From a virus (lineage: Duplodnaviria; Heunggongvirae; Uroviricota; Caudoviricetes), in the IMG/VR virus record IMGVR_UViG_2541047882_000009, positions 1 through 10,504 of that record: 10,504 nucleotides of DNA. One strand, written 5' to 3'. Positions 1-10,504 of the stretch are shown here, piece by piece. Below the pieces are notes generated by a model. That model did no database searches. It saw nothing but the letters and a program-made list of their open reading frames with translations, and was not told the DNA's origin. Positions within the stretch are counted from its first letter, which is position 1, and the number at the start of each line of letters is the position of its first letter. Both the position numbers and the translations under genes were made by a program.

Positions 1-580
1 TTAATTTATTGAATTTAAACGATAAATATCGCCACAAATAACGTTAAAAATCGCAAATTGACTACACCATTAACTACACCGTTCGGTGCACTGTATGCAA
101 CAACGTGGAACAAATAGACACAAGCGATATACAGGAAGGGACGATTTTTCTATGCAGATTTGCATAGTTCTAAATGAAGCTGGTGGATGATCACGGATAA
201 CCCGTTATGGGGATCACCATATCGACATCACGCCCACCAGCGAGATTAGTTACCTGGTTGCTGATGGGGGGCTGACGAACCTCGATGTCAGGATGCACAA
301 AACTAGTGAGACCTTTTTTCTCTGCAACAGGCCCATAATTCGCGTTTTCTTTGTCTGCCGTAAGGTGGGGGATTTTGGGCGGATCCAGCAATGGCGCGGA
401 TTTTGTTATTTTTTATAGATAGACCTCACCTATCAATCACATGCACATCTTCCCAAAAAAAGTTTTCGAACTTGCGGCGATGTGAACAAGGGTAGGCGGG
501 CGGTCCCATAAGCAATGGGGCGTAGGGATTTCGATCCCCCCGGGGGTATTAAACACCCCCCTATTTAAATACCGTCTTTT

Positions 581-630
581 TTGTCACTGTGTGTCACTGG
601 TTGTCACTCTCCGTCACGGTATGTCACCAT
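581..630. repeat. Five tandem 10-bp direct repeats with GTCAC core (tTGTCACTnn)
   Basis: Seen in sequence: ttgtcactgt, gtgtcactgg, ttgtcactct, ccgtcacggt, atgtcaccat, contiguous at exact 10-bp phasing. One additional TTGTCACTCA copy lies at 1181-1190. Confidence 0.7.
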
Positions 631-633
631 AAG

Positions 634-918
634 TTAACGTCGTAACCGCTCCGGCTTCTTCCAGTGGTAAGTAATTTTTTCTTTCTCCTGGTACATCTGC
701 ACGCGGCGACGGTATGACAACATCTCCAGAACTCTGGTGCGTATATTGCGCATATCCACGCCGTTAAGCTCAATACCGTCACGGCGCATCACCTCAGCCA
801 CCACACGCGCGTAATTTTCGGCTATCACGCTGTCCGGCTGCGTGGCCTCCTGTTTGCCTGCTGCCTGGTTGGCTCCGGTAACGCGGCGAATCATTTTGAG
901 CATTTCGGCTTCGGTCAT
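634..918 (-). CDS. Hypothetical protein, 94 aa (six-frame ORF extends to 948)
   Basis: Seen in sequence: the preferred start is the ATG at 918, with a GGAGG SD 8 nt upstream; the earlier in-frame ATGs at 948 and 924 have no or poorly spaced SDs. No family recognised. An array of GTCAC repeats lies immediately 3-prime. Confidence 0.5.
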   Translation of the reverse strand: MTEAEMLKMIRRVTGANQAAGKQEATQPDSVIAENYARVVAEVMRRDGIELNGVDMRNIRTRVLEMLSYRRRVQMYQEKEKITYHWKKPERLRR

Positions 919-962
919 TGTCATGGCCTCCGTGATGATGGGAAACAATGCCGTAATTGTGG

Positions 963-1165
963 CGGGTCCTTCCTGGAAAATGAAACACCGGGGGTAGCCA
1001 TACGCGCAATTCTTAACTGTTTATGAAAATTTTTCGGGAAAAGTCAGATCCGTTCTTCTTCTCTGTAACTCATTGTTTAATGGTAAAATCATCAAAAAAA
1101 GAAAGGATCTGACAGTGGTCATTTTGGGCCAAAAATGACGTTATCAGATCCTTTCTCAGTTTTGT
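963..1165 (+). other. Second lambda-type cos region in inverted orientation, with different R-site motifs and no cognate terS downstream on its strand
   Basis: Seen in sequence: the plus-strand reading has TACGCGCAATTCTTAACTGTTTATGAAAATTTTTC (1001-1035, identical to the inverted copy at 1914-1948), then CAGATCCGTTCTTCTTC (lambda R3 GGCGTTTCCGTTCTTCTTCG), an AT-rich IHF-like segment, GAAAGGATCTGACAG (lambda R2 GAAAGGAAACGACAG) and TATCAGATCCTTTCTC (lambda R1 CTGTCGTTTCCTTTCTC). The R2/R1 dyad (1101-1112 and 1145-1156) with flanking A and T runs could also act as the terS terminator. Confidence 0.55.
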
Positions 1166-1183
1166 TCAATAATTGCGCGGTTG

Positions 1184-1768
1184 TCACTCACCTTTCTGTT
1201 GCCGTAATTTCTCCGGCACGTTTCCGGTTGTTTCCATCAGGTAGTCTTTCAGAATGCGGGGCAGGTTATCGGCAGTTTTAGCGCACGCATTACAGGCGCG
1301 TGCTGTTTCTTTCCTCAGGCCCTCGATCATTGCCGGAGTCATCGCGGGGAACTGCCTTTGCATTGTGAGCGGTAAACTATCCATGATCGAAGAAATCTGG
1401 CGCGCCAGACCACGAAGCGCATAGAGAACGAACTCAGTATCTGTAACTTCCCCCGCCTCTCTGGCGTTCTTCAGTTCCTGCCCGTCCGCCTGTGCTTTGG
1501 TGAGACGGTAGCGTTCGTACTCTGTTGTGCCTGGCTGTAAATCTGATTCACCAGCAGCACGTAAATCATCAAGCTCCCTGCGGAGTTTTTCGTTTTCGAT
1601 GTCCTTCTCCCTCTGTGCATACCATTCGATCACCTGTGCAGAGTCGAAAGTCACTTCCACACCTTTACCCCCACCAGATACATGGGGAAGCCCTTGCGTT
1701 TGCCATCGTTCAATCGTGCGCGGATCGACGCCAAAAATCTTCGCAAGATTATTTTTATTAACATTCAT
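1184..1768 (-). CDS. terS: Terminase small subunit, lambda Nu1 family, 194 aa
   Basis: Seen in sequence compared with recalled lambda Nu1: [103 protein letters not shown] aligns almost colinearly with [109 protein letters not shown] SD 10 nt upstream. The recognition-helix region differs from lambda. Confidence 0.9.
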   Translation of the reverse strand: [194 protein letters not shown]

Positions 1769-1985
1769 CTATCAATTCCTTATCAAAAACCAGTTCCGAC
1801 ATGAAACGCCAAAAAAACAGGATTTTTGGGCTTTATGATGTCGTATGTTTCTGGTGGTTGATTTTAATAAAAACAAACAGTTATGCGCGAGAAGTACCGA
1901 CATGCTTTTTCCTGAAAAATTTTCATAAACAGTTAAGAATTGCGCGTACACGTACCCCCCGTGTTTCAGATTCTGGAAAGGACCC
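1769..1985 (-). other. Lambda-type cos region (cosN-proximal segment plus cosB with R3-I1-R2-R1 layout) immediately upstream of terS
   Basis: Seen in sequence compared with the recalled lambda left end: the minus-strand reading contains CTGTTTATGAAAATTTTTCAGG (lambda CTATTTATGAAAATTTTCCGG), then CATAACTGTTTGTTTTTATTAAAATCAACC (lambda CATAACTTAATGTTTTTATTTAAAATACC, the IHF I1 region), flanked by three repeats: CATGTCGGTAC (about 1891-1905), inverted ATGTCGTATG (about 1836-1848) and CATGTCGGAAC (about 1790-1804). These occupy the positions of lambda R3, R2 (inverted) and R1, and the terS ATG follows as Nu1 does in lambda. The exact nick positions cannot be assigned. Confidence 0.6.
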
Positions 1986-2011
1986 GTGAAAATTGGGGTG
2001 ATCACCACCGT

Positions 2012-2042
2012 TCCGGACACAAAAAAATCGCGAGGCCTTGCC
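2012..2042 (-). terminator. Rho-independent terminator ending the head operon
   Basis: Seen in sequence: stem CGCGAGG / CCTCGCG (2020-2026 and 2036-2042) with a 9-nt loop; on the minus strand it is followed by a T run (complement of the A run at 2012-2018). It sits about 25 nt after the 141-aa gene stop. Confidence 0.55.
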
Positions 2043-2065
2043 AACCTCGCGAACGTTCATTTCAG

Positions 2066-2491
2066 TTACTTAACAGACAGCAACAGCTTTTCATCTTCGG
2101 TCAGTCCGGCGTTACCATCACCGGCTGCTGGCCCAACACATTTCGGGCTGTGCTTTTCCATGTACGCATCAAACAAAAAAGCCGTTTTCTTTTCCTGCAT
2201 CATTGCCTGGGCATCCACGGCAGCCAGTAACGTTTGTGCATAGGTTACTGTCATTACTTCAGAACCACACTCAATCAGCTTACTGGTGAATTCAGGGTAT
2301 TTTGATGCCAGCGGTAACGCCTTGATACCCTCTATGCGCTGTTTATCACTCTCAGCCTTTGCAGTAAGTACCGTTCGGGCTTCTGTCAGTGATGCGCCAT
2401 TATTTGCGAGATTTTCCGCAAGCGTCGGGTATTTCTGCGCCTCAGGCAGTGCCATGATCAATGCTCTGGTTGAATTTGCTTTCTCAGTCAT
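2066..2491 (-). CDS. Hypothetical protein, 141 aa, with an internal duplicated motif; last gene of the head operon
   Basis: Seen in sequence: GGTGA SD 4 nt upstream and a 14-nt gap after the gpD-like stop. An internal repeat is present: ALPEAQKYPTLAENL and ALPLASKYPEFTSKL. No family recognised; no convincing similarity to lambda FI, FII or W. Confidence 0.55.
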   Translation of the reverse strand: MTEKANSTRALIMALPEAQKYPTLAENLANNGASLTEARTVLTAKAESDKQRIEGIKALPLASKYPEFTSKLIECGSEVMTVTYAQTLLAAVDAQAMMQEKKTAFLFDAYMEKHSPKCVGPAAGDGNAGLTEDEKLLLSVK

Positions 2492-2505
2492 AAATCACCA
2501 CAAAA

Positions 2506-2835
2506 TTATTGCCCTAAAGGCTGCACGGAAATACCGGAACCAACAAAAGCCGACACTTTTTTCTCGAACGTGTCCGCTGTATCAGGCCAGTTAATTTCAT
2601 CGATATTAAAAACCCCGCACTTATAAACCTGTGCGCGGTTTTTTGTGGCCGTGTTAATGTCCGATATGGTCAGATACACCGCCTTACCGGGTGTACCGTC
2701 CCACTCAACCATCAGGCCCGCGCCGTTCTGCATCAGCGGAGTTCTCGCTTTAATTTCTCCGGCACTGGCAAAACAGGCCAGCGTGCTGACCAGTTCCTGC
2801 GTGCCGGAAAGGAATTGCGTGTAAGGTGTTGGCAT
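2506..2835 (-). CDS. Head decoration protein, lambda gpD family, 109 aa
   Basis: Seen in sequence compared with the recalled lambda gpD sequence: TPLM, WDGT, YKCGVF (lambda YKSGTF), WPD/WPE and AFVGSGISV (AFAGTAISIV), at the same length (109 versus 110 aa). It lies immediately downstream of the capsid gene with a good SD. Confidence 0.8.
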   Translation of the reverse strand: MPTPYTQFLSGTQELVSTLACFASAGEIKARTPLMQNGAGLMVEWDGTPGKAVYLTISDINTATKNRAQVYKCGVFNIDEINWPDTADTFEKKVSAFVGSGISVQPLGQ

Positions 2836-2845
2836 ACGATCCCCT

Positions 2846-3901
2846 TTATTTCACTTCGACGGTAACAAAGCGACCAATATCCACGGGTACTGGCTGCGGG
2901 GCGCTGTGCGTCTGCACGTATTCAATCGCCGGATCGCCAGGTACGATATAATTTTTCGGGTAGTACATCCCCTCAGAAAACCCCTCGCGTGCCGCGTCCT
3001 GATCCATGATGGCACCATAAGCAACAAGGCCTTTATTTTCGGTATTGCCGAAAACCATCATGTTTTGTTTCAGGAAATATTGCTGCTGCCCGCATTCGTC
3101 GTCATAACGACCGGAATAAACCACGAGCGCCACATCACCGAGATACCCCTTGAAGCTGACAACGCCGCCCAAATCTTTTAGCGCAAGTTCAAGTGACGAG
3201 TTTGAACCGCGACGCGTGTCCAGGAGTTCGCGGAATCGACGGAACGAGCGCAAAATACGCCAGGCTTCGCCACCCATGACGATAATATTTACCGTACCTT
3301 TGGAAAAATCAGCGTAAGCCTCAATGTCGCTTATCGGATCAAACGTCTCGGCATCCTGTTTTGACCATTCTTTCCCGCCAGCCTGTGTAATGTGATTGGT
3401 TGCGGGTAATCCCCAGTCAATTTCATAACGCTCAATGCCTTCGCCTTCGATAACGTTACGGCCTGTTGTGATGGCATTGACCGCCAGCCATTCAACACGC
3501 GCTTTGATGGCAGCAAGCTGTTTTTTCTGGCTGTCGTGAACCATTTTTACGCGGCGTAGTGCCGGGGAAGACTGACCATTGCCGATCTGTTCTCCAGCCA
3601 TGCGCATGATTGTTTTAGTGGGATCAATAACGTGTTTGGGCTTCATATAACCCGGCGTGAAAGTGTTCGTTGTAAAACCTTTGTCACGCATAACCTGACT
3701 GCCTGACATTGGTGAACAAAACGGACTCATGACCACGTTTTCAATATCCAGCGTATCAAGCGCAATATCTCGCGTACTGAACGTGGCGATATTCGGAAAA
3801 AACAGCGTCGTAAAGAGCGGATTAAATTTAAATTCCGGCACATCTTCTCGCCCGATATTTTTCAGTAGCGTTGGTGTGCTTACCAGTTGTGGCGCTGTCA
3901 T
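2846..3901 (-). CDS. Major capsid protein, lambda gpE family, 351 aa
   Basis: Seen in sequence compared with the recalled lambda gpE sequence: shared blocks FKFNPLF, FTPGYMKPKH (lambda FTPGYVKPKH), ITQAGGKEWSK (ITQSGGTEWSK), DPISDIEAYA (DPTDDIEAYA), VNIIV, DTRRGSNSSLE (DTRRGSNSELE), KGYLGDVALVVYSGRY (KGMYGDVAIVVYSGQY), YPKN, GDPA and SAP, at near-identical length (351 versus 341 aa). Confidence 0.9.
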   Translation of the reverse strand: MTAPQLVSTPTLLKNIGREDVPEFKFNPLFTTLFFPNIATFSTRDIALDTLDIENVVMSPFCSPMSGSQVMRDKGFTTNTFTPGYMKPKHVIDPTKTIMRMAGEQIGNGQSSPALRRVKMVHDSQKKQLAAIKARVEWLAVNAITTGRNVIEGEGIERYEIDWGLPATNHITQAGGKEWSKQDAETFDPISDIEAYADFSKGTVNIIVMGGEAWRILRSFRRFRELLDTRRGSNSSLELALKDLGGVVSFKGYLGDVALVVYSGRYDDECGQQQYFLKQNMMVFGNTENKGLVAYGAIMDQDAAREGFSEGMYYPKNYIVPGDPAIEYVQTHSAPQPVPVDIGRFVTVEVK

Positions 3902-4107
3902 TACTCACCCCCATGAGGCTGATTCATACCAAGCGCAGCGCGTAAATGGCTGCGTACCATCCAGCCGACTGACGGCTTCACCAGGCACAACGGATCAAGG
4001 CCGATTTTTTTTCCTGCCTCTGCGTTCTCCTCAAAGCGCGCATTAAGTGCGGCGATAATATCGGGGCTGATGTACACGGATACACCGCCCGGCTTCTGTG
4101 TTCCCAT
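3901..4107 (-). CDS. Hypothetical small protein, 68 aa, first gene of the head operon
   Basis: Seen in sequence: strong SD (AAGAGGAA) 9 nt upstream; the stop overlaps the capsid gene start (TAATG). No family recognised. Confidence 0.55.
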   Translation of the reverse strand: MGTQKPGGVSVYISPDIIAALNARFEENAEAGKKIGLDPLCLVKPSVGWMVRSHLRAALGMNQPHGGE

Positions 4108-4157
4108 AAATGAGATTCCTCTTTGACTAAAAAAATAAACATAACGAAAAGTCAGTC

Positions 4158-4223
4158 ATGATTTTAATCATCATTGCATTTTTTGCAATGCGATTGACTG
4201 TTGTTGCAAATCATGAAATGATT
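4158..4223 (-). promoter_or_regulatory. Candidate head-operon promoter overlapped by palindromic operator-like sites
   Basis: Seen in sequence: minus-strand sigma70-like promoter with -35 TTGCAA (4183-4188), 16-bp spacer and -10 TAAAAT (complement of 4161-4166). The palindrome ATGATT-TT-AATCAT (4158-4171) covers the -10 and CATTGCA-TTTTT-TGCAATG (4172-4190) covers the -35. A third palindrome AATCAT-GAA-ATGATT (4209-4223) shares the ATGATT half-site. Confidence 0.4.
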
Positions 4224-4284
4224 ATGCCGTGGTTTTAATCCTTGTACCACAGAGTCATTCAGCATTAATCACGTTAGCGGCGTG

Positions 4285-4320
4285 AAATCCCCCGGAACCT
4301 CATCCCGGGGGATTTTTTTT
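4285..4320 (+). terminator. Rho-independent terminator, plus-strand orientation, with no annotated plus-strand gene upstream
   Basis: Seen in sequence: perfect 11-bp stem AAATCCCCCGG / CCGGGGGATTT (4285-4295 and 4305-4315) with a 9-nt loop, followed by a T run to 4320. Confidence 0.55.
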
Positions 4321-4326
4321 ACGCAC

Positions 4327-4352
4327 AAAAAAGCCGGGAAAAATCCCGGCTT
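4327..4352 (-). terminator. Rho-independent terminator ending the replication/ssb operon
   Basis: Seen in sequence: stem AAGCCGGGA / TCCCGGCTT (about 4331-4339 and 4344-4352) with an AAAA loop; on the minus strand it is followed by a T run (complement of the A run at 4325-4332). It sits 15 nt after the ssb stop. Confidence 0.6.
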
Positions 4353-4366
4353 CTGTCACTCGTTGC

Positions 4367-4789
4367 TTAAAACGGTATGTTATCCCCGTACGGATCATCA
4401 TTTCCCGCCTGTTGTTTTGCCCTGTTCAGTGCGTCAGTAGCCTGGCCCTGCTGGCCTTTTTTGCCGCCCGGTCGCGCCGTCCGCGCACTGATTACGCTGT
4501 CTGCGATAACCTGCCAGCCCTGCCGCGTTTCGCCGTTCTGGCCTGTCCACTGGCTTACCTGCATGTTACCCGCCACGCTCACCAGTTCGCCTTTGTGGTG
4601 CTTTGCCAGTGCGTCGGCCTGTCTGCCAAACGCCATGACGGATAACCACATCGTCGCCGTTCCGTCATCTGCCTGGCTGCACGGCAGGGGAACCGCCATA
4701 CTCGCCATCGCCATTTGTGTCCCCTTGCTGGTGGTCTTTAACTGCGGGTCAGCCACCAGCCGCCCGTAAGCCGCTATCTGTGCTGTCAT
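4367..4789 (-). CDS. ssb: Single-stranded DNA-binding protein (short SSB), 140 aa
   Basis: Seen in sequence: OB-fold-like N-terminus (IAAYGRLVADPQLKTTSKG..., WLSVMAFGRQADALAKHHKGELVSVAGNMQVSQWTGQNGETRQ), a Gly/Gln-rich linker and an acidic tail ending DDPYGDNIPF. Established knowledge: this parallels E. coli SSB, including the C-terminal D-D-D-I-P-F protein-interaction tail. Confidence 0.85.
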   Translation of the reverse strand: MTAQIAAYGRLVADPQLKTTSKGTQMAMASMAVPLPCSQADDGTATMWLSVMAFGRQADALAKHHKGELVSVAGNMQVSQWTGQNGETRQGWQVIADSVISARTARPGGKKGQQGQATDALNRAKQQAGNDDPYGDNIPF

Positions 4790-5037
4790 GCTGTCTGTTC
4801 TCCGGTTTTAACGTTGATGGTTGTCACCTGTTCCGCTTCGGCAATCTCCCGCTCTGTCAGCGTGGCAAAGTTTGCCGCCGCCGTGGTCATGAATGCGCTT
4901 ATCAGTTCGGGATGTGCTTTCGCGTATCCTTCTCCGGCATGGCGGTCTATCGTTCTGATTGCCACCTTTAAGGCGTGCTCTGTCATGTCTAATGCGCGAT
5001 ATTTTGGTGCTGTCTTATCTCTGGTTTTTCTGGTCAT
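4786..5037 (-). CDS. Hypothetical protein, 83 aa (the six-frame ORF extends to 5169 but the upstream part is made of iterons)
   Basis: Seen in sequence: the internal Met at 5037 has an AGGTGG SD 4 nt upstream, and the 5-prime extension of the ORF overlaps the iteron array, so the shorter start is preferred. The stop overlaps the ssb start (ATGA). No family recognised. Confidence 0.5.
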   Translation of the reverse strand: MTRKTRDKTAPKYRALDMTEHALKVAIRTIDRHAGEGYAKAHPELISAFMTTAAANFATLTEREIAEAEQVTTINVKTGEQTA

Positions 5038-5040
5038 GCG

Positions 5041-5249
5041 CCCACCTGTGCCCACTTTTTCTACCCACTTTTCATGGTTTCCCACTTCGTCCCACCTGGG
5101 ATTTTGTGGTTTTATATCGTACTGTTTCATAAGAGTTTTTTTAGTGCCCACTTTTTGGGATGTATACACGTGGGAAAGTGGGCGATTTTGTTAAATTCCA
5201 GTTAAATTACCCACTATTCCCACTTTTAACGCCCACTTTTTACAGTGGG
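5041..5249. repeat. Iteron array, about 9 direct and 3 inverted copies of CCCACTTTT-like motif; candidate replication origin
   Basis: Seen in sequence: CCCAC(C/T)T copies starting at about 5041, 5051, 5064, 5081, 5091, 5147, 5210, 5219 and 5232, and inverted GTGGG copies at about 5170, 5178 and 5245. Inference: placement directly downstream of the rep gene stop matches the usual ori position in PICI/SaPI-type elements. Confidence 0.6.
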
Positions 5250-6646
5250 TGAACATCATCCCCATCGACGCAAATCACGCCGTCTTTTTCCAGTTTGGCT
5301 AACCATCGTTTAAGGTGTTTTGTGTCATATCCCAGCTTTTTCATGTCATCACGTAGCAGCGGGATCGTACATTTATCACCATGCTGTATACGCGACCGGA
5401 TACAACCCCATAAAGCCGTGTGATTTTCCGTCTTGTTCCCGGCCTCCTCTATGCGCTCCAGTTCAGCAGGGGCGCGGGGAACGTCAATCACCACCATGGA
5501 CACAATCTCTTCGCCATCTGTATCGGTGAACACCTCCACGCTTTTAAGATCGTATGCACTCTCTTTTGGCTCCTCTGCGTCCTTCATCTTCGTACACGCC
5601 GCCACCAGTGCTGTAACCTCTGAATTTTCCCGGCTGATTCGGTACTCTGCATCAAGCGCGGCACGGAATGCGCTGGAACCGCGCGCCCCCTTTGTTTCAT
5701 CCTTGCCGGAATGGTGAACCACCAGCACCGTGGCCCCTGTGGCCTGCTTTATCGCGTCACACCCCTGGATAAATGCGCCCATATCGCGGGAATCATTTTC
5801 ATCATTCCCACCAAAGCAACGGGCCAGCGTGTCGATCACAATCAGCCGCACATTTTCGCCCGTTCTGCTCTTAACAAGTCCGGCAGTCCTGATAACCTGC
5901 TCCACATAGTCAGGCGATGCGGGGAAGACAGGCGCGTTAACGATGCACAAATCTGTAACCACCTTGTCATGGGTTATCTCCCACGCCTTAACGCGGCGTT
6001 TTACGCCCATACTGCCTTCGCCAGCGATATAGATAACAGCGCCCTTACTTACCCTGCGGCCTCCCCATGCCATACCTGTGGCAACATGGCACGACCAGGA
6101 AATAGCCAGGAACGATTTATAAGAACCGCTGGCCCCGTAGGTGCTGCATAATGACTCAGCCGGAATAAGCCCCTTAATTACGTAGCTTTGCTGCGCGTCG
6201 AATCCCTCAGAACCCCATGAGATGGGAAGTGTGATTTTTCGCTTTCCACCATTCATGACCAGACTTTCCCCGCGTTCCCAGGTTTCTTTAAGCCGCGGTA
6301 GTTGCTCGCTCCAGTCCTCCAGCAGTTCGAAATTCTCTGAAAGTAACCGTGCTTCCTGGACACCTGCGATCGCCAGTTTGGTGGCAATGGTCAGCATCTG
6401 CATATCGTCCAGGTTTCCGGCGCGTATGACCTTTGCTCTGTATCGTCCTTCATCAACAATCTGTAAATTGTCCAGTTCGCTTAACTGATAACGGCCCAGG
6501 TAAACCGGAGGGATGGGATCGCCTGCTTTTTTGGCCTGTGCAATCATGTAATGTTCTGCAAAGGAGTGAGCATTATCACCCGCAAAAATAACCGCCTCAG
6601 TGTGTTTATCTTTCGGTAACAGTTTTACGTTCGGTGCCAGTTTCAT
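5240..6646 (-). CDS. Replication initiator/helicase-type ATPase, RepA-like (AAA_25 RecA-fold core), 468 aa, with a C-terminal winged-helix-like tail
   Basis: Seen in sequence: Walker A-like GASGSYKS, Walker B-like RLIVIDTL followed by VLVVHHSGKDETKG, in the arrangement LIPAESLCSTYGASGSYKSFLAISW...AVIYIAGEGS typical of AAA_25/RepA-like proteins. Established knowledge: such proteins act as replication initiators or helicases in PICIs, plasmids and integrative elements. The N-terminal 150 aa is unassigned and has no obvious primase motifs. An iteron array lies immediately 3-prime. Confidence 0.8.
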   Translation of the reverse strand: MKLAPNVKLLPKDKHTEAVIFAGDNAHSFAEHYMIAQAKKAGDPIPPVYLGRYQLSELDNLQIVDEGRYRAKVIRAGNLDDMQMLTIATKLAIAGVQEARLLSENFELLEDWSEQLPRLKETWERGESLVMNGGKRKITLPISWGSEGFDAQQSYVIKGLIPAESLCSTYGASGSYKSFLAISWSCHVATGMAWGGRRVSKGAVIYIAGEGSMGVKRRVKAWEITHDKVVTDLCIVNAPVFPASPDYVEQVIRTAGLVKSRTGENVRLIVIDTLARCFGGNDENDSRDMGAFIQGCDAIKQATGATVLVVHHSGKDETKGARGSSAFRAALDAEYRISRENSEVTALVAACTKMKDAEEPKESAYDLKSVEVFTDTDGEEIVSMVVIDVPRAPAELERIEEAGNKTENHTALWGCIRSRIQHGDKCTIPLLRDDMKKLGYDTKHLKRWLAKLEKDGVICVDGDDVHPL

Positions 6647-6942
6647 TTTTTACCTCTGGATGCGCTGAGCATGCTTTTTATTTTCTTAATATTTTCCCGT
6701 GCTTTTTCCCTGCTGGTGGGCTTACCGCGTGTTACGTTCTGTACCAGAGAAAAATCACGCCGGAACTGATAAACAGGCATCACGCAGTCATAGCCGTACC
6801 CATCACGGCGGTAAGTAACACACCGTCCCGCCACGCTTTTAATCGTTACAGTGCCGCCGTATTTATCTTTGAAAATATCGCCGGGGCGGATTTCAGGCCG
6901 AGCGGGGCCGCTGGCAGTAAAGCCAGAAATTTTCTGTTTCAT
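6643..6942 (-). CDS. Hypothetical basic protein, 99 aa (possibly DUF4222-like)
   Basis: Seen in sequence: ORF whose stop overlaps the rep start (ATGA). The motif GDIFKDKYGGTVTIKSVAGRCVTYRRDGYGYDCVMPVYQFRRDF is reminiscent of small prophage proteins found upstream of primase/rep genes; this is a recollection with low certainty. Confidence 0.5.
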   Translation of the reverse strand: MKQKISGFTASGPARPEIRPGDIFKDKYGGTVTIKSVAGRCVTYRRDGYGYDCVMPVYQFRRDFSLVQNVTRGKPTSREKARENIKKIKSMLSASRGKK

Positions 6943-6947
6943 GGTTT

Positions 6948-7181
6948 TTATTTCCCGGTGTGTTGTTCTTTATATCTGTCGTGCAAAAGGTCTATTTCTT
7001 GTAGTTCCATTATTACCGGCTCAAGAAGCGTTATTAACGCCGTCGCAATATTGCTGTTGCGTTTATTTCTTTCATTATCGCCAAGCGTTTCAAGCCATAA
7101 GCGCAATATTTCAAGCATGTTTTCACTGTAAGCAAGAGCACGGTATGCACGGTCTACTGTGTCATTGTAAATATCACACAT
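6948..7181 (-). CDS. Hypothetical helical protein, 77 aa
   Basis: Seen in sequence: start overlaps the stop of the 154-aa gene; the stop lies 5 nt before the next start. No family recognised. Confidence 0.5.
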   Translation of the reverse strand: MCDIYNDTVDRAYRALAYSENMLEILRLWLETLGDNERNKRNSNIATALITLLEPVIMELQEIDLLHDRYKEQHTGK

Positions 7182-7638
7182 GGCTTACATCCTCCGGGAA
7201 TTTTCTTCTGTAACGCGCCTCTGCCACATATTCCGCATAGTCCGACGCAATATTGAGAATATCGCTACCCGTTCCTGAATGTTTGGCGGTTTCCAGCAAA
7301 AAACATGCAGCTTTTACCATGTCAGCAACACATAACAGCGCAATATCTGTATCTTCCGGTGCGCCATCAAATTCCTGTTTCAGGGCATTAAAACGATCAT
7401 CACGCATAACCCCCCCATTTTCACAATCAGCAATCAGGATGGCTTTAGCCTCATTCAGTGCCATATCAGCGGTAAGCTGTGCGTAGGCCAGCGAATGGGG
7501 GATTATTTCCCCTGTATATTCCGTCTCTCTGGTAATGTGTTTTTCTGCGGTTGCTGCCGTGCATGAAATATCAATCAGCGCGTGCATCAGCGTTTTGATG
7601 GCTTCGGCGGCTGCGTCCGGACGGGTGTTATTGCACAT
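7174..7638 (-). CDS. Hypothetical acidic protein, 154 aa
   Basis: Seen in sequence: ORF with start overlapping the upstream stop and stop overlapping the downstream start, so it is translationally coupled within the operon. No family recognised. Confidence 0.6.
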   Translation of the reverse strand: MCNNTRPDAAAEAIKTLMHALIDISCTAATAEKHITRETEYTGEIIPHSLAYAQLTADMALNEAKAILIADCENGGVMRDDRFNALKQEFDGAPEDTDIALLCVADMVKAACFLLETAKHSGTGSDILNIASDYAEYVAEARYRRKFPEDVSHV

Positions 7639-7834
7639 GGCGCACCCCCTGACGAATACGGGCGGCGAATACCATCACACAGCCAGCCGGGGATTGCTGG
7701 CGTGCTTCCTGTTCGCTGGTGGCCTCAATGGTAATCACACGCGGTTGTGCCGTGCTCAGGGCGATAAAACGCCAGATGTATTTATTCAGGTTGTGCGAGT
7801 CCCGCCCTTGCGGGTGTGTGGTATGATTTCTCAT
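7628..7834 (-). CDS. Small protein, 68 aa, resembling Icd/Ash-like proteins of P4-like elements
   Basis: Seen in sequence: ATG at 7834 preceded by a GAGGT SD; the stop overlaps the start of the next gene (ATGTGCAATAA). It forms the in-frame C-terminal part of the spurious long ORF 7628..8680. Recalled, not searched: the motif ...RFIALSTAQPRVITIEATSEQEARQQSPAGCVMVFAARIRQ resembles Icd-like host cell division inhibitor family proteins. Confidence 0.5.
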   Translation of the reverse strand: MRNHTTHPQGRDSHNLNKYIWRFIALSTAQPRVITIEATSEQEARQQSPAGCVMVFAARIRQGVRHVQ

Positions 7835-8030
7835 AGCTACCTCGATACGCTTTCTATCGTTGGTGGTTAGACGCCCTGCATGTGTGCCACCACTGCGGGG
7901 CGTTGCTGTATATACACCACAATTATTGGTGTGCATACAGATTAAATTTAAGTGTGCTACAGTGTCAAGTGTTTTATTAACACACCTTTTGGTGTAATGT
8001 GTACACACCTCAAAATAACCGGACATCCTA
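7835..8030. promoter_or_regulatory. Divergent promoter/operator region between the small-regulator gene and the replication operon
   Basis: Seen in sequence: AT-rich gap containing several ACACC/GGTGT inverted repeats (ACACC-N9-GGTGT near 7914-7932, ACACC-TTTT-GGTGT near 7982-7995, GTGTACAC near 7999-8006). A minus-strand sigma70-like promoter is present: -35 TTGACA (complement of 7963-7968), 16-bp spacer, -10 TTTAAT (complement of 7941-7946). A leader hairpin lies near 7872-7900. Confidence 0.5.
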
Positions 8031-8330
8031 ATGGCAACAGGAAACATCAACAGCAGATCGCAAATGAAAAATATCCGCTTCCCCCATGATGTAATCGAGG
8101 AAATGGAAAATTCGAAAACGGAAGGGGAAACAATAGCCGCTTTCGTGATTACAGCTGTTCGCGGGGAGATCGCCCGCCGCCAAGCTGAAGGAAGCGGAGA
8201 AAATCCCCTGGTTTCTTCGCTCGATGCACTGGCGCAGGTGGAAAAAATTGGAGTCAAAGCTGCCGAGGAGATCGGGCAACTCGTCGCCGTCGCGCGTGAA
8301 GAACTCCAGCGCCGCAAGGCCAAAGAATAG
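8031..8330 (+). CDS. Small DNA-binding protein, ribbon-helix-helix-like; candidate repressor of the divergent replication operon
   Basis: Seen in sequence: 99-aa ORF and the only convincing plus-strand gene, divergent from the minus-strand operon. Inference: the N-terminal segment KNIRFPHDVIEEMENSKTEGETIAAFVITAVRGEIARR fits a beta-strand then two helices as in Arc/MetJ/CopG folds. The SD is weak (GGA only) and the true start could be the internal Met at codon 12. Confidence 0.5.
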   Translation: MATGNINSRSQMKNIRFPHDVIEEMENSKTEGETIAAFVITAVRGEIARRQAEGSGENPLVSSLDALAQVEKIGVKAAEEIGQLVAVAREELQRRKAKE

Positions 8331-8437
8331 GAATAGCCCACCAGCAAGCCAGCACACTGATCACATTGCCCACCAGCCGCAAATGTGGCATTGTTGGCTA
8401 TGCTCATGCGTTGGGGATAACGTGTAGCTTGTGTCGA

Positions 8438-8468
8438 GGGGCCACCGTAGCGGGTGGCCTTTGTTTTG
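8438..8468 (+). terminator. Rho-independent terminator downstream of the plus-strand regulator gene
   Basis: Seen in sequence: stem GGCCACC / GGTGGCC (8440-8446 and 8453-8459) with loop GTAGCG, followed by TTGTTTT. Confidence 0.55.
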
Positions 8469-8563
8469 CCTGTTATCCTGCAACTATGGTCATTTCGACC
8501 ACGGTTGATATAACCCCCCTGCACTGATCCAATTTTTTCGCAGCAGGTTAATTGTTCAGAAAG

Positions 8564-8591
8564 GCGGCTCCATTTCGGGGCCGCTTTTTTT
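8564..8591 (+). terminator. Second plus-strand rho-independent terminator
   Basis: Seen in sequence: stem GCGGCTCC / GGGGCCGC (one G-U pair) with loop ATTTC, followed by a run of seven T. Confidence 0.55.
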
Positions 8592-8732
8592 ATGCCTGAA
8601 AAACCACAATTTTGTTGTTTTCCAGTCTCACCAGGACGAGCGAAGCCCCGCCCCTGTTCGGGCGTATATCCAGTCTTCATGGTTAAATCTCTGTATTAGT
8701 GGATGGGAGGCGGCTGTGTGCCGCCAGCCTGA

Positions 8733-8936
8733 TTAGTGAACTGCCTCGCGGCTGTCCTTCCATGCCAGAACTTCGGATAAAGACCAGCCAACGGAACGAC
8801 CGCCGAGTTTACGCCGTGATGGGAATTGTCCGGTTTTTTCCAGGCGGTACCGACATGAGCGGCTCAGGCCTGTAAGTTGCTGACATTCTTTTTCACGTAT
8901 AAAGCGATCAGTGCTTAACACTATTGCCTCCGTCAT
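8733..8936 (-). CDS. alpA: AlpA-family (excisionase-like, MerR-type HTH) DNA-binding regulator, 67 aa
   Basis: Seen in sequence: 67-aa ORF downstream of int on the same strand. Established knowledge: the size and the motif ...QQLTGLSRSCRYRLEKTGQFPSRRKLGGRSVGWSLSEVLAWK... are typical of AlpA/Vis-like regulators of P4-like prophages and Gram-negative PICIs. An int then alpA order is the canonical layout. Confidence 0.8.
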   Translation of the reverse strand: MTEAIVLSTDRFIREKECQQLTGLSRSCRYRLEKTGQFPSRRKLGGRSVGWSLSEVLAWKDSREAVH

Positions 8937-9189
8937 TTCTCAAAGAGTCATTTGGTGTCTTATTGTGTCGTATTGTTCCCGCTGGAGTGATGAATGGCAA
9001 ATATTGGTGACGGCCATTTTACAGAAATGGGGTAATTAGAATAAAAATACTTTTAAATCATTGTGATAAAGTAGCGTAAAATTCTGTTTTTACGTCTTTT
9101 TTACATGTTTTTAAGAGTGATTCGCCAGTGTATAAAAAAACAGTATGCATATAAAAATCAAATGTTTATGGCGCTGTTTGATTTTTAAT

Positions 9190-9257
9190 CCGTTTGTTCC
9201 AGATTGTTCGCCGTTGTTCGTCGTGGTGTCTCGTTGTTTCACGTTGTGTCCGTTCTG
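9190..9257. repeat. Six to seven tandem 10-bp direct repeats (nCGTTGTKTC) downstream of int and upstream of the alpA promoter
   Basis: Seen in sequence: ccgtttgttc, cagattgttcg, ccgttgttcg, tcgtggtgtc, tcgttgtttc, acgttgtgtc at 10-bp phasing. A related trio (TTGGTGTC, TTGTGTCG, TTGTTCC) at 10-bp phasing lies at about 8944-8973, directly upstream of the alpA start. Confidence 0.65.
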
Positions 9258-9274
9258 AAAAATCGCGAAAAAAA

Positions 9275-10504
9275 TTATATTTCTCTGGCTATTGGCAGTG
9301 TGGTTACGTTTTCGTGAGCACCTGCCAGTATCTCTAATCGCTCTGTCCACATATCCAGCGCGTTACGTTTCGCATCAATATAGCGGGAGTGGTTATAGAC
9401 TCGTTGCATCCCTGGCATCTGGTGGGCGGTAAGTTGCTCGACAATATGCGGATCCACGCCTAAATCGTTCAGCATCGTGGTAAACGTGCGCCGTATATCG
9501 TGCAGGGACCAGTGAGGATGGTTTAATTTTTTGTGCGTAAATCTGCCGTATTGTGACACGCTGGCTTCCTGTTTCAGTTCTCCGAGTAATAACCCTGTGT
9601 GCCTGTTCTGCTCCACCAGCTGCGTGACGAACGGCAAAATGCTTTCCGGTATTGGCCTGAATATGGCGACCTTCGTTTTGCTGTGTTCTTTCGGTACCGT
9701 CCAGAGCATTTCCTTAAAATCCCACTCCCTGATCTCCGACAGCCTCAGTTCTCCGGTCCGGCAGCCGAACACAATCAGGAGGCGGATTAGTGCGCTGTAG
9801 TAGGGCGGGAATATTTTTTTATCCAGCGCCTGTAATAATTCGCCCAGTTCTTTGTTACTAAGCACGCGTTCGCTTATGCCCGGCTTTTTGCCAACGTCCA
9901 GCACGTTGAGATCATCCAGAACGTTACTGACTGCGTAGCGACGTTTACGGCAGAACTTAAGCGCCTGTTTGCACGCCTGCATCATGTGGCCAGATGTTAC
10001 GGGTGATTTTTTGCGTATCCGGTCAAAACAGGCCAGCCAGTGACGCAACTCGCATTTATCCAGCGGCATATTGCCAATATGCTGTATGACGTGATTATTC
10101 AGGCGGCTTTTCAGGGAGACGTAATCGACACGGTTTTCCTTTACGTGCATTTCCAGCCAGTAGCTGATCGCATCGCCTACCGTTACCGGCTTTAGTGCTT
10201 CCTGTATGGAGTAATTAAGCTCATGGCGTGGATTTTTTCCCTCTGCCAGCCATGCGCGACACTGTGCTGCTTTTTCCCTGGCTGCTTTCAGGCTCAGATC
10301 CGGATAATTTCCCAGCTTCAGGCGTTCCGGTGATACCTGGCGTCCTGTTCCTGCCCTGTAGGTGAAATACCAGGTTAACAGACCGCTGGTGGAGTGTCTG
10401 ATACTCAGATTTCCACCGTCATTAAGAAAGGTGGTTTTTTGGGCTGGTGTGCCGTTGATTTTTCTTAGCTGCGTGTCGCTCAGTTTGTTAAGTGCCCTGC
10501 TCAT
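9275..10504 (-). CDS. int: Tyrosine site-specific integrase, P4-type, 409 aa
   Basis: Seen in sequence: 409-aa ORF whose ATG is the last three bases of the window. Established knowledge: the N-terminal arm-binding-like segment (LSDTQLRK...FLNDGGNLSIR...WYFTYR...LKLGNYPDLSLKAAREKA) and the C-terminal catalytic region with HxxR and a terminal Tyr context (HDIRRTF...HQMPGMQRVYNHSRY) match the P4 integrase family layout. The promoter and any att site or tRNA would lie beyond the window. Confidence 0.9.
   Translation of the reverse strand: MSRALNKLSDTQLRKINGTPAQKTTFLNDGGNLSIRHSTSGLLTWYFTYRAGTGRQVSPERLKLGNYPDLSLKAAREKAAQCRAWLAEGKNPRHELNYSIQEALKPVTVGDAISYWLEMHVKENRVDYVSLKSRLNNHVIQHIGNMPLDKCELRHWLACFDRIRKKSPVTSGHMMQACKQALKFCRKRRYAVSNVLDDLNVLDVGKKPGISERVLSNKELGELLQALDKKIFPPYYSALIRLLIVFGCRTGELRLSEIREWDFKEMLWTVPKEHSKTKVAIFRPIPESILPFVTQLVEQNRHTGLLLGELKQEASVSQYGRFTHKKLNHPHWSLHDIRRTFTTMLNDLGVDPHIVEQLTAHQMPGMQRVYNHSRYIDAKRNALDMWTERLEILAGAHENVTTLPIAREI

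Follow-up and report, generated by a model that had tools for sequence, protein, structure and literature searches.

The DNA analysed here, positions 1 to 10,504 of the IMG/VR record IMGVR_UViG_2541047882_000009 (10,504 nt; called the window throughout), is a Gram-negative phage-inducible chromosomal island (PICI) of the E. coli type that is read on the minus strand. The gap between its alpA gene and its Icd-like gene is occupied by a gene for a 99-aa protein on the plus strand. We find it probable that this region is an immunity and control module on the vis-eta/kil plan of the satellite P4, in which a protein repressor replaces the CI RNA. The region was compared in at least 24 loci from more than 10 genera, gathered as 14 loci of other genera, loci of E. 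coli and Klebsiella with other types of the protein, and annotated E. coli relatives. The comparison brought out the gene, a set of repeated sites that covary with the protein, the terminators, an open frame on the opposite strand and the P4-like layout.

The 99-aa open reading frame (ORF) is a real gene, since its product matched the NCBIfam family NF041551 (YlcI_YnfO_N) with 64.3 bits (cut-off 30; E 7.8e-18; residues 9-50 on profile positions 1-42 of 42) and phrog_6522 from end to end (E 8.9e-48), and since 138 homologues were found across the Enterobacterales (Escherichia, Salmonella, Citrobacter, Klebsiella, Enterobacter, Yersinia, Erwinia, Serratia and Cronobacter). The genes of distant relatives also have strong Shine-Dalgarno (SD) sequences, TATAAT as the -10 element and terminators of their own. 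In the family alignment the residues R16, P18, F38, R44, E46, I47, R49 and R50 are invariant, and residues 11-15, just before R16, are hypervariable. The protein carries an Arc-like motif N-x-R-x-P-x-D-V. With hhalign, NIRFPHDV was aligned to NLRWPREV of Arc at E 0.0015 in a single comparison, and a single comparison to Mnt was marginal (E 0.026). PF07704, a ribbon-helix-helix (RHH) family, scored 19.3 bits (cut-off 28.3), and matches to it below the threshold were obtained for 23 of 30 members of the protein family; the closest structural and profile resemblances were to the RHH antitoxins TacA, MazE and Rv0298 and to PF07704. The AlphaFold monomer (predicted local distance difference test score 78.6) has an extended coil at residues 12-18, helices at 19-28 and 35-54 and a single long helix at 59-98. 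A monomer cannot display the beta-ribbon, and the modelled order of coil, helix, helix and long helix suggests an RHH monomer with a C-terminal helix that probably serves oligomerisation. We regard the regulator as probably RHH-like (Arc/Mnt-like), with residues 11-15 as its predicted DNA-reading strand.

In other loci, short versions of 57-65 aa that are devoid of the C-terminal helix fill the same position. One O145 element without a YlcI/YnfO annotation (L017) holds an unannotated 57-aa ORF with a textbook-like RHH N-terminus (YQMRLPEDFRAQLEEAA...) at 2026-2199 on the plus strand, in the same antisense slot within a minus-strand ORF at 1698-2642. Several unrelated-looking small RHH genes therefore occupy this slot.

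Upstream of the regulator gene, GGTGT or ACACC was found five times within 108 nt (at 7914, 7928, 7982, 7991 and 8005; span 7914-8009). This was the sole cluster of at least five copies in the window, and none of 500 shuffles reached five. When the copies were aligned, five sites of about 14 nt were obtained, O0 to O4, with the consensus GGTGTG(Y)ATAC (Table 1). Every locus compared had 4-5 copies of a 9-11-nt motif upstream of the gene, at constant positions of about -120, -98, -76, -53 and -31 from the ATG and hence about 22-23 bp, or two helical turns, apart.

The sequence of the motif was different for each type of the predicted strand. Proteins with QLTTV had TGTGTTTCA in E. coli and in Xenorhabdus and Photorhabdus, and the same motif was found in a Serratia locus with the near-identical strand QLFTV. 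QSLTA went with CTTACAC (Enterobacter, Klebsiella), QQ(L/I)NA with TGGTATTCA and TQISI with TGTGATTYA, and the short versions of 65 aa and 59 aa went with TGTGCGCAC and TGTTRAACA, respectively. The type of the window, Q(M/L/I/V)KN(I/V), went with GGTGTG, and its own strand QMKNI with GGTGTGCATAC-type sites. In one relative (L020) the N-terminus of Rep was 97.6% and AlpA 90.6% identical, yet the RHH type and the motif were different; in another (L001) the RHH type and the motif were the same at a Rep identity of only 52%. Since the motif follows the RHH strand and not Rep or AlpA, the repeats are most likely the operators of the 99-aa protein. In many E. coli matches, moreover, the alignment begins only at codon 17 (window position 8080), so that the operators together with the first 16 codons behave as a single, exchangeable specificity cassette. 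The covariation strongly supports operators over both promoters, and we consider the repressor and operator part of the model quite likely.

The predicted internal promoter on the minus strand has a perfect TTGACA and two options for the -10 element, TTTAAT at 7946..7941 with a 16-bp spacer or TAATCT at 7944..7939 with an 18-bp spacer. TTGACA and TTTAAT give 11 of 12 consensus matches, but the A at position 2 is absent, and a consensus promoter scan missed the promoter owing to its -10 rule. The -35 element (GTCAA) is kept in roughly 19 of the 21 loci in the alignment, and a TAnnnT follows it 17-18 bp downstream. At the position of the predicted regulator -10, all loci have TAnnnT, which is TATAAT in Xenorhabdus and Photorhabdus. 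The minus promoter is covered by O1 at the -10 and start and by O2 in the spacer, the regulator promoter by O3 in the spacer and by O4 at the -10 and start. This geometry points to repression of the operon together with autoregulation, the latter being suggested by O4 on the regulator's own -10 and start.

In nearly all loci, at least one strong intrinsic terminator lies on the plus strand behind the regulator gene. The window has two, T1 and T2. T2 was overlooked by the terminator scan and is clear by folding, and it is kept with compensatory changes in the stem in L001, L022 and L024. It is reasonable to assume that T1 and T2 stop the regulator transcript before alpA. The original prediction, made from the letters of the window, had already proposed a plus-strand gene divergent from the replication operon, dense ACACC/GGTGT dyads, a near-consensus minus promoter, a small RHH-like regulator with operators and two strong terminators ahead of alpA. 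All of these were borne out, the first minus gene being Icd-like, the regulator probably RHH-like and the operators over both promoters drawing on strong covariation, and the operators are conserved in related elements in their positions, with a type-specific sequence. What had been missed was the antisense embedding of the cassette in a conserved long ORF and, with it, the P4 vis-eta/kil layout.

This long ORF has 350 codons on the minus strand and crosses in antisense both terminators, the whole regulator gene, its operators and the two predicted promoters. The Icd-like gene is nested in it as its C-terminal end (NF033153). The same family is C-terminal in eta of P4 and in the long frames of L005, L013 and L015; the long frame of L010 matched it below the threshold (17.1 bits; cut-off 25). 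Inside the regulator gene, the shared codon position 3 removes most antisense stops, so the flanks decide whether the frame is kept open. In the 200 nt 5' of the regulator ATG, the in-phase minus frame had no stop in 12 of 17 loci, and the stops totalled 16 in this frame versus 88 and 95 in the remaining two minus frames. For the 300 nt 3' of the regulator stop the totals were 20 versus 136 and 84. Across the 24 loci the open frame starts no more than about 40 nt from the alpA stop or overlaps it, and at its other end it is fused to the first operon gene or closes a few nt before the start of that gene. Among the E. coli relatives the indels in the long ORF net to multiples of 3. An analysis of substitutions by codon position cannot separate the two frames because both share position 3. 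The possibility that the 350-aa ORF is a product of chance or of annotation was rejected by the flanking stop counts and the phases of the indels. The selected property seems to be an uninterrupted path for translation.

Judged by its sequence, the N-terminus of the long ORF is a remnant of a Bro-N protein. In the window this part (8340-8680) is without the Bro-N-like block (…NIVNARALQMFDDKKGVNLTYTPDGNQNMSIISESGFYKLI…) of L001, L024 and L029, a net difference of 156 nt that is in-frame. The annotation of the region by the Prokaryotic Genome Annotation Pipeline (PGAP) is inconsistent: a single long 'Icd-like protein' (470 aa in L001) is called in one case, and a YlcI/YnfO gene with a 'partial' pseudogene elsewhere. 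The label 'transcriptional repressor' that PHROG gives to Icd-like families probably stems from the old annotation of a P4 'cI' ORF.

From this arrangement we infer DNA binding, promoter use, read-through, anti-polarity and interference, which would act together as follows. In the quiescent state the 99-aa protein would bind the five sites at 7906-8012 and shut the internal minus promoter, so that neither the toxic Icd/Kil-like peptide nor the replication operon would be expressed. The regulator would also limit its own promoter, and T1 and T2 would end its mRNA before it enters alpA and int in antisense. On induction, a helper phage would trigger AlpA, and transcription from the alpA promoter would run through alpA into the 350-codon ORF. 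Translation of the long ORF would shield this transcript from Rho-dependent polarity, as in P4 eta. The polymerase would then cross the repressor cassette from behind, and the Icd-like end and the downstream operon would be expressed regardless of the repressor. The read-through would also disturb the synthesis of the repressor, both by occluding its promoter and by pairing with its mRNA, to which the transcript is complementary.

That AlpA-driven read-through can bypass a repressed internal promoter is suggested by the P4 vis-eta/kil layout. Over-expression of AlpA alone induced the prototype PICI EcCICFT073 without a helper (PMC6092414), which is exactly what the bypass model predicts, EcCICFT073 having the same design. 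The read-through part of the model nevertheless stays tentative, our doubts slightly outweighing our confidence. A further reading extends the model to the whole group and is more doubtful. It says that enterobacterial PICIs, including the prototypes, carry a hitherto overlooked protein immunity in which the operators and the first 16 codons are exchanged, and that the cassette lies antisense in a translated spacer ORF that would be selected mainly for its openness. Transcripts driven by AlpA would be translated across it and so escape Rho, bypass the promoter and silence the repressor by interference and mRNA pairing. The repressor mRNA would double as an antisense RNA in the role of CI, and the specificity types would define immunity groups among satellites that compete with one another.

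Several observations weigh against the proposed module. An RHH-like fold had been part of the original prediction; the AlphaFold model is compatible with it in the order of coil and helices, but Foldseek against PDB and BFVD gave nothing significant for the small N-domain. No Pfam or curated RHH model matched the regulator above its cut-off, and hmmsearch against the PDB sequences returned zero RHH chains. In the window, the SD of the regulator gene (GGA) is weak, and so are the -10 elements. The long frame is broken in L003, L004 and L014 (it is stop-free in about 20 of 24 loci), and its N-terminal two thirds are junk-like and unconserved between genera, so that a function of the product itself is doubtful. 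The codon position 3 that the regulator and the antisense frame share may partly explain the openness inside the regulator gene. Finally, the Rho dependence and the read-through are extrapolated from P4.

Among the alternatives, an Stl-like master repressor has the most in its favour and is still unlikely. In such a system the 99-aa protein would keep the entire element silent until an anti-repressor of the helper phage bound its conserved C-terminal helix, and the long ORF would be a Bro-N/Icd leftover without a role. The type-specific operators on the divergent promoters are in line with this, and the C-terminal half is kept across the specificity types (82-84% nucleotide identity), as a shared sensor surface would be. 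The loss of the Bro-N block and the unconserved N-terminus of the long ORF likewise fit a leftover. However, the frame stays open with in-frame indels across genera and across unrelated operator and terminator sequences, which is not relic-like, and the short versions lack the very helix that the anti-repressor would bind. The induction of EcCICFT073 by AlpA over-expression involved no helper protein (PMC6092414).

An addiction or toxin-control module, in which an antitoxin-type regulator of an Icd/Kil-like division inhibitor would stabilise the island rather than control its life cycle, is improbable. It draws on the resemblance to RHH antitoxins and on the Icd/Kil-like gene being the first under the operators; over-expressed P4 kil is reportedly lethal to cells. 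The genes of type II toxin-antitoxin systems are co-transcribed, whereas here the two genes are divergent, with separate predicted promoters and terminators, and the promoter of the Icd-like gene heads the whole replication operon. The operators lie on promoter elements and point to transcriptional control, so that the difference from the repressor module that we favour is mainly one of emphasis.

We regard it as very improbable that the GGTGTG-type sites are replication iterons or arm sites of AlpA or the integrase. Multiple phased repeats near int and alpA of a satellite would suit such a function, and in P4 the origin repeats are located upstream of its alpA homologue. Against it, the motif changes with the RHH strand at nearly unchanged Rep and AlpA and is constant at distant Rep, and the sites lie across the -35, -10 and start positions of the two predicted promoters. 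That only the long minus ORF is real and the 99-aa ORF an annotation artefact of an open antisense frame is scarcely credible, for although PGAP calls the 470-aa protein across the region in the closest relative and the shared codon position 3 lets either frame be open because the other codes, NF041551 was defined from the prophage genes ylcI and ynfO, the Arc-like residues are invariant, the gene has its own expression signals in distant loci, its residues covary with the nearby repeats, and the antisense translation of the regulator stretch had no family match beyond the Icd-like end.

The original prediction had noticed GTGTC-type motifs in 10-bp phased repeats around the alpA promoter and had proposed that one regulator serves both regions. 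The repeats are present (TTGT-type, GTGTC-containing, at 8955-8976 and 9204-9254), but they are unchanged in elements with wholly different RHH types and operators. A shared regulator was rejected for this reason; the resemblance in the GTGTC motif is superficial, and the repeats are more likely sites for AlpA or arm-type sites for the integrase.

The distribution was examined in 5,426 complete E. coli genomes. About 1,000 of them matched at least part of the cassette query and 316 matched over at least 80% of it. The design is present in EcCICFT073 and in a capsid-forming PICI (cf-PICI) of O157:H7, and the cassette also occurs in Erwinia, Enterobacter, Klebsiella, Serratia, Pantoea, Xenorhabdus and Photorhabdus. 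The arrangement is thus widespread and not, as had been supposed, unusual for a Gram-negative satellite. In EcCICFT073 (L029, 8526-10053), alpA is followed by an ORF of 428 aa that starts Bro-N-like and ends Icd-like, and a 59-aa YlcI/YnfO gene lies antisense at 9474-9653. The genes of EcCICFT073 are drawn as unidirectional in published maps. Close relatives of the window are integrated at several sites of the E. coli chromosome.

Table 1. Features of the window, from the integrase end downward; operator positions in the remarks are distances from the regulator ATG, and the last row refers to other loci.
Feature	Position	Strand	Remarks
Integrase	9275-10504	-	Pfam/PHROG/NCBIfam
alpA promoter region	8955-9254		candidate promoter TTGCCA-17-AACAAT 9000..8972; outside the RHH operator set
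alpA	8733-8936	-	activator/excisionase family; PF05930, E 3.4e-18; 5' of the long ORF
GC hairpin between alpA stop and long-ORF start	8703-8735	-	-16.1 kcal/mol, z -4.06; kept in E. coli relatives; without a minus-strand U tract
eta-like ORF, 350 codons	7628-8680	-	ATG 53 nt after alpA stop; ends as Icd-like domain
Terminator T2	8560-8597	+	8562-8588 plus U7; 13-14-bp stem; -21.8 kcal/mol, z -3.64
Terminator T1	8437-8472	+	stem 8437-8462, 10 bp; from scan; fold -20.9 kcal/mol; kept in E. coli relatives
99-aa regulator gene	8031-8330	+	predicted RHH-like N-domain (residues about 9-54); long C-terminal helix 59-98
O4, putative operator	7997-8012	-	TGAGGTGTGTACACAT; overlaps regulator promoter -10/start; direct repeat D3; about -31
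O3, putative operator	7973-7988	-	AAGGTGTGTTAATAAA; between both -35 elements, in plus promoter spacer; direct repeat D3; about -53
O2, putative operator	7949-7962	+	TAAGTGTGCTACAG; in minus promoter spacer; about -76
O1, putative operator	7926-7940	+	TTGGTGTGCATACAG; overlaps minus promoter -10/start; position about -98 kept in all loci, sequence type-specific
O0, putative operator	7906-7920	-	GTGGTGTATATACAG; inverted repeat with O1, forming a 35-bp palindrome; site at about -120 also in L015 and L020
Predicted regulator promoter	7972-8000	+	-10 TAATGT 7995-8000; weak -35 TTTTAT 7972-7977
Predicted internal promoter of the Icd-like gene and replication operon	7939-7968	-	-35 TTGACA 7968..7963
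Two leader hairpins of the internal-promoter transcript	7844-7905	-	A 7869-7905; B 7844-7864, abutting the SD; -39.6 kcal/mol, z -3.6
Icd-like (P4 Kil-like) 68-aa gene	7628-7834	-	NF033153, E 1.5e-19; own SD GAGG and ATG at 7834
RepA/AAA_25 helicase	5240-6646	-	Pfam/PHROG/NCBIfam
Loci with inconsistent annotation	L001 8987-10399; L002 9634-10177; L018 3110-3557; L019 8168-8584		

The leader of the predicted internal transcript folds into two hairpins. RNAalifold on 18 loci found compensatory changes in 7 of 12 consensus pairs, and hairpin A has the arms GCCC...GGGC followed by a conserved TCTAACCA. The hairpins may be an element for translation control or processing. The L020 version of the hairpin between alpA and the long ORF has a T run on the plus strand and would be a third terminator before alpA.

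Beyond the Icd-like gene the window has three small ORFs, one of them DUF4222, and then the RepA/AAA_25 helicase. A single-stranded DNA-binding protein (SSB), a lambda-E-like major capsid protein, a decoration protein and a Nu1-like small terminase (TerS) follow; the decoration protein was assigned only by its position and the RefSeq annotation of a relative. The integrase, alpA, the replication module and the captured late genes are co-oriented, and the window is without tail or lysis genes, as is the case for PICIs and capsid-carrying satellites. The late module (1184-3901) is lambda-like, with an E-type capsid, a D-type decoration protein and a Nu1-type TerS, and it is without portal, protease and large terminase genes. 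Because YlcI/YnfO genes adjoin cos in prophages, a lambda-type cosN (GGGCGGCGACCT, up to 2 mismatches) was searched in the window, with zero matches. After the SSB gene, two tandem terminator-like hairpins on the minus strand (4281-4352) gave weak Rfam matches below the threshold to ncr1175 and SorY; they are most likely plain terminators between the replication and capsid modules.

For the Gram-negative PICIs, the founding paper left unclear whether there is a global repressor (Fillol-Salom et al. 2018), and their induction has so far been explained only via the activator AlpA. The regulator is a concrete and widespread candidate for a repressor. It comes with predicted operators and predicted specificity residues, and its presence in EcCICFT073 and the O157:H7 cf-PICI makes it testable in established systems. 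In the literature we found no paper on a divergent or antisense repressor in Gram-negative PICIs and none that gives YlcI/YnfO (DUF3950) proteins a function. Precedents exist for the parts, namely RHH repressors, the nested eta/kil and activation by AlpA; new are the way these parts are combined and the placing of the cassette antisense within a frame that is kept open. With a complete transcription unit lying antisense in an ORF that appears to be kept open by selection across genera, the region is an unusually clean natural case. It also bears on genome annotation, where the call falls inconsistently on the long 'Icd-like' ORF or on the YlcI/YnfO gene, and the specificity cassette could be used as an immunity marker in the typing of satellites. 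It would also tie the PICIs mechanistically to P4 by a common vis-eta/kil scaffold, on which RNA immunity would have been swapped for protein immunity.

For the protein as such, a functional parallel is immI of P22, where the RHH repressors Mnt and Arc control the divergent promoters Pant and Pmnt of the antirepressor operon and Mnt has a C-terminal coiled coil. In the window, too, a small RHH-like protein with a C-terminal helix, as in Mnt, and with the strand motif N-x-R-x-P-x-(D/E)-V of Arc is encoded divergently from an operon, the long ORF of this operon bears Bro-N/Ant-like remnants, and the operators overlap back-to-back promoters. The sequence similarity to Arc and Mnt is marginal, however, there are 4-5 sites over about 105 bp instead of one operator, and the gene lies antisense inside a presumably translated ORF of a satellite and not in a phage. 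In immI of P1 and P7 (C4 antisense RNA, icd, ant), control is exerted by a processed antisense RNA. There, as in the window, a gene of the Icd family, from which NF033153 takes its name, comes first in the controlled operon and regulation acts on its expression, but no processed antisense RNA of the C4 kind was detected in the window.

The similarity to the Stl-Str (Rpr) switch of the Staphylococcus aureus pathogenicity islands (SaPIs) and the Gram-positive PICIs, to which the original prediction had compared the region, is loose. It holds for the repressor, which is divergent from the replication operon and transcribed toward the integrase side, for the intergenic operators and for a satellite that waits for its helper phage. 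It does not hold for the repressor fold (Stl is a helix-turn-helix protein) or for a Str/Cro-like partner, in place of which the first gene is Icd/Kil-like; moreover, the window has the activator AlpA, the overlapping long ORF and, probably, a bypass by read-through. With YlcI of DLP12 and YnfO of Qin in E. coli K-12, whose genes adjoin the terminase genes nohD and nohA of lambdoid prophages, the regulator has the 42-residue N-domain in common (NF041551). The satellite proteins are longer by a C-terminal helix, and their genes are placed between alpA and icd.

A close counterpart of the whole region is the left-operon control region of P4 (NC_001609), with its promoters PLL and PLE. There, a 214-aa ORF, eta (8812..8168), comes after the AlpA homologue ORF88/vis (8764-9030); it overlaps the end of vis and has an Icd-like C-terminus (NF033153, E 1.4e-20). 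Rfam placed both the CI (C4) RNA and an isrK-type element inside the eta ORF of P4; in contrast, neither C4 nor isrK was found in the window (E up to 1) or in 17 related loci (gathering score). Instead of these RNAs, the window has an antisense protein cassette of promoter, operators, gene and terminators. The two elements also differ in the length of the long ORF (350 aa versus 214 aa) and in the helicase, which is RepA-type here and alpha in P4. Shared between them are the AlpA-family gene directly 5' of the long ORF, with the same spacing or overlap in the relatives, a short Icd/Kil-like gene with its own start that is nested as the 3' end of the long ORF, and a replication operon downstream; in the window, a putative immunity determinant and a predicted internal promoter likewise lie within the long ORF. 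In PMC10111431, which cites Forti et al. 1999, kil is described as the end of the longer gene eta. The same source states that eta undergoes translation only from the upstream late promoter and that translating it averts termination, the late transcripts thereby ignoring immunity. The open frame of the window is consistent with this published role of eta, and an anti-Rho role for translation of the long ORF would be consistent with both the depletion of stops and the in-frame indels.

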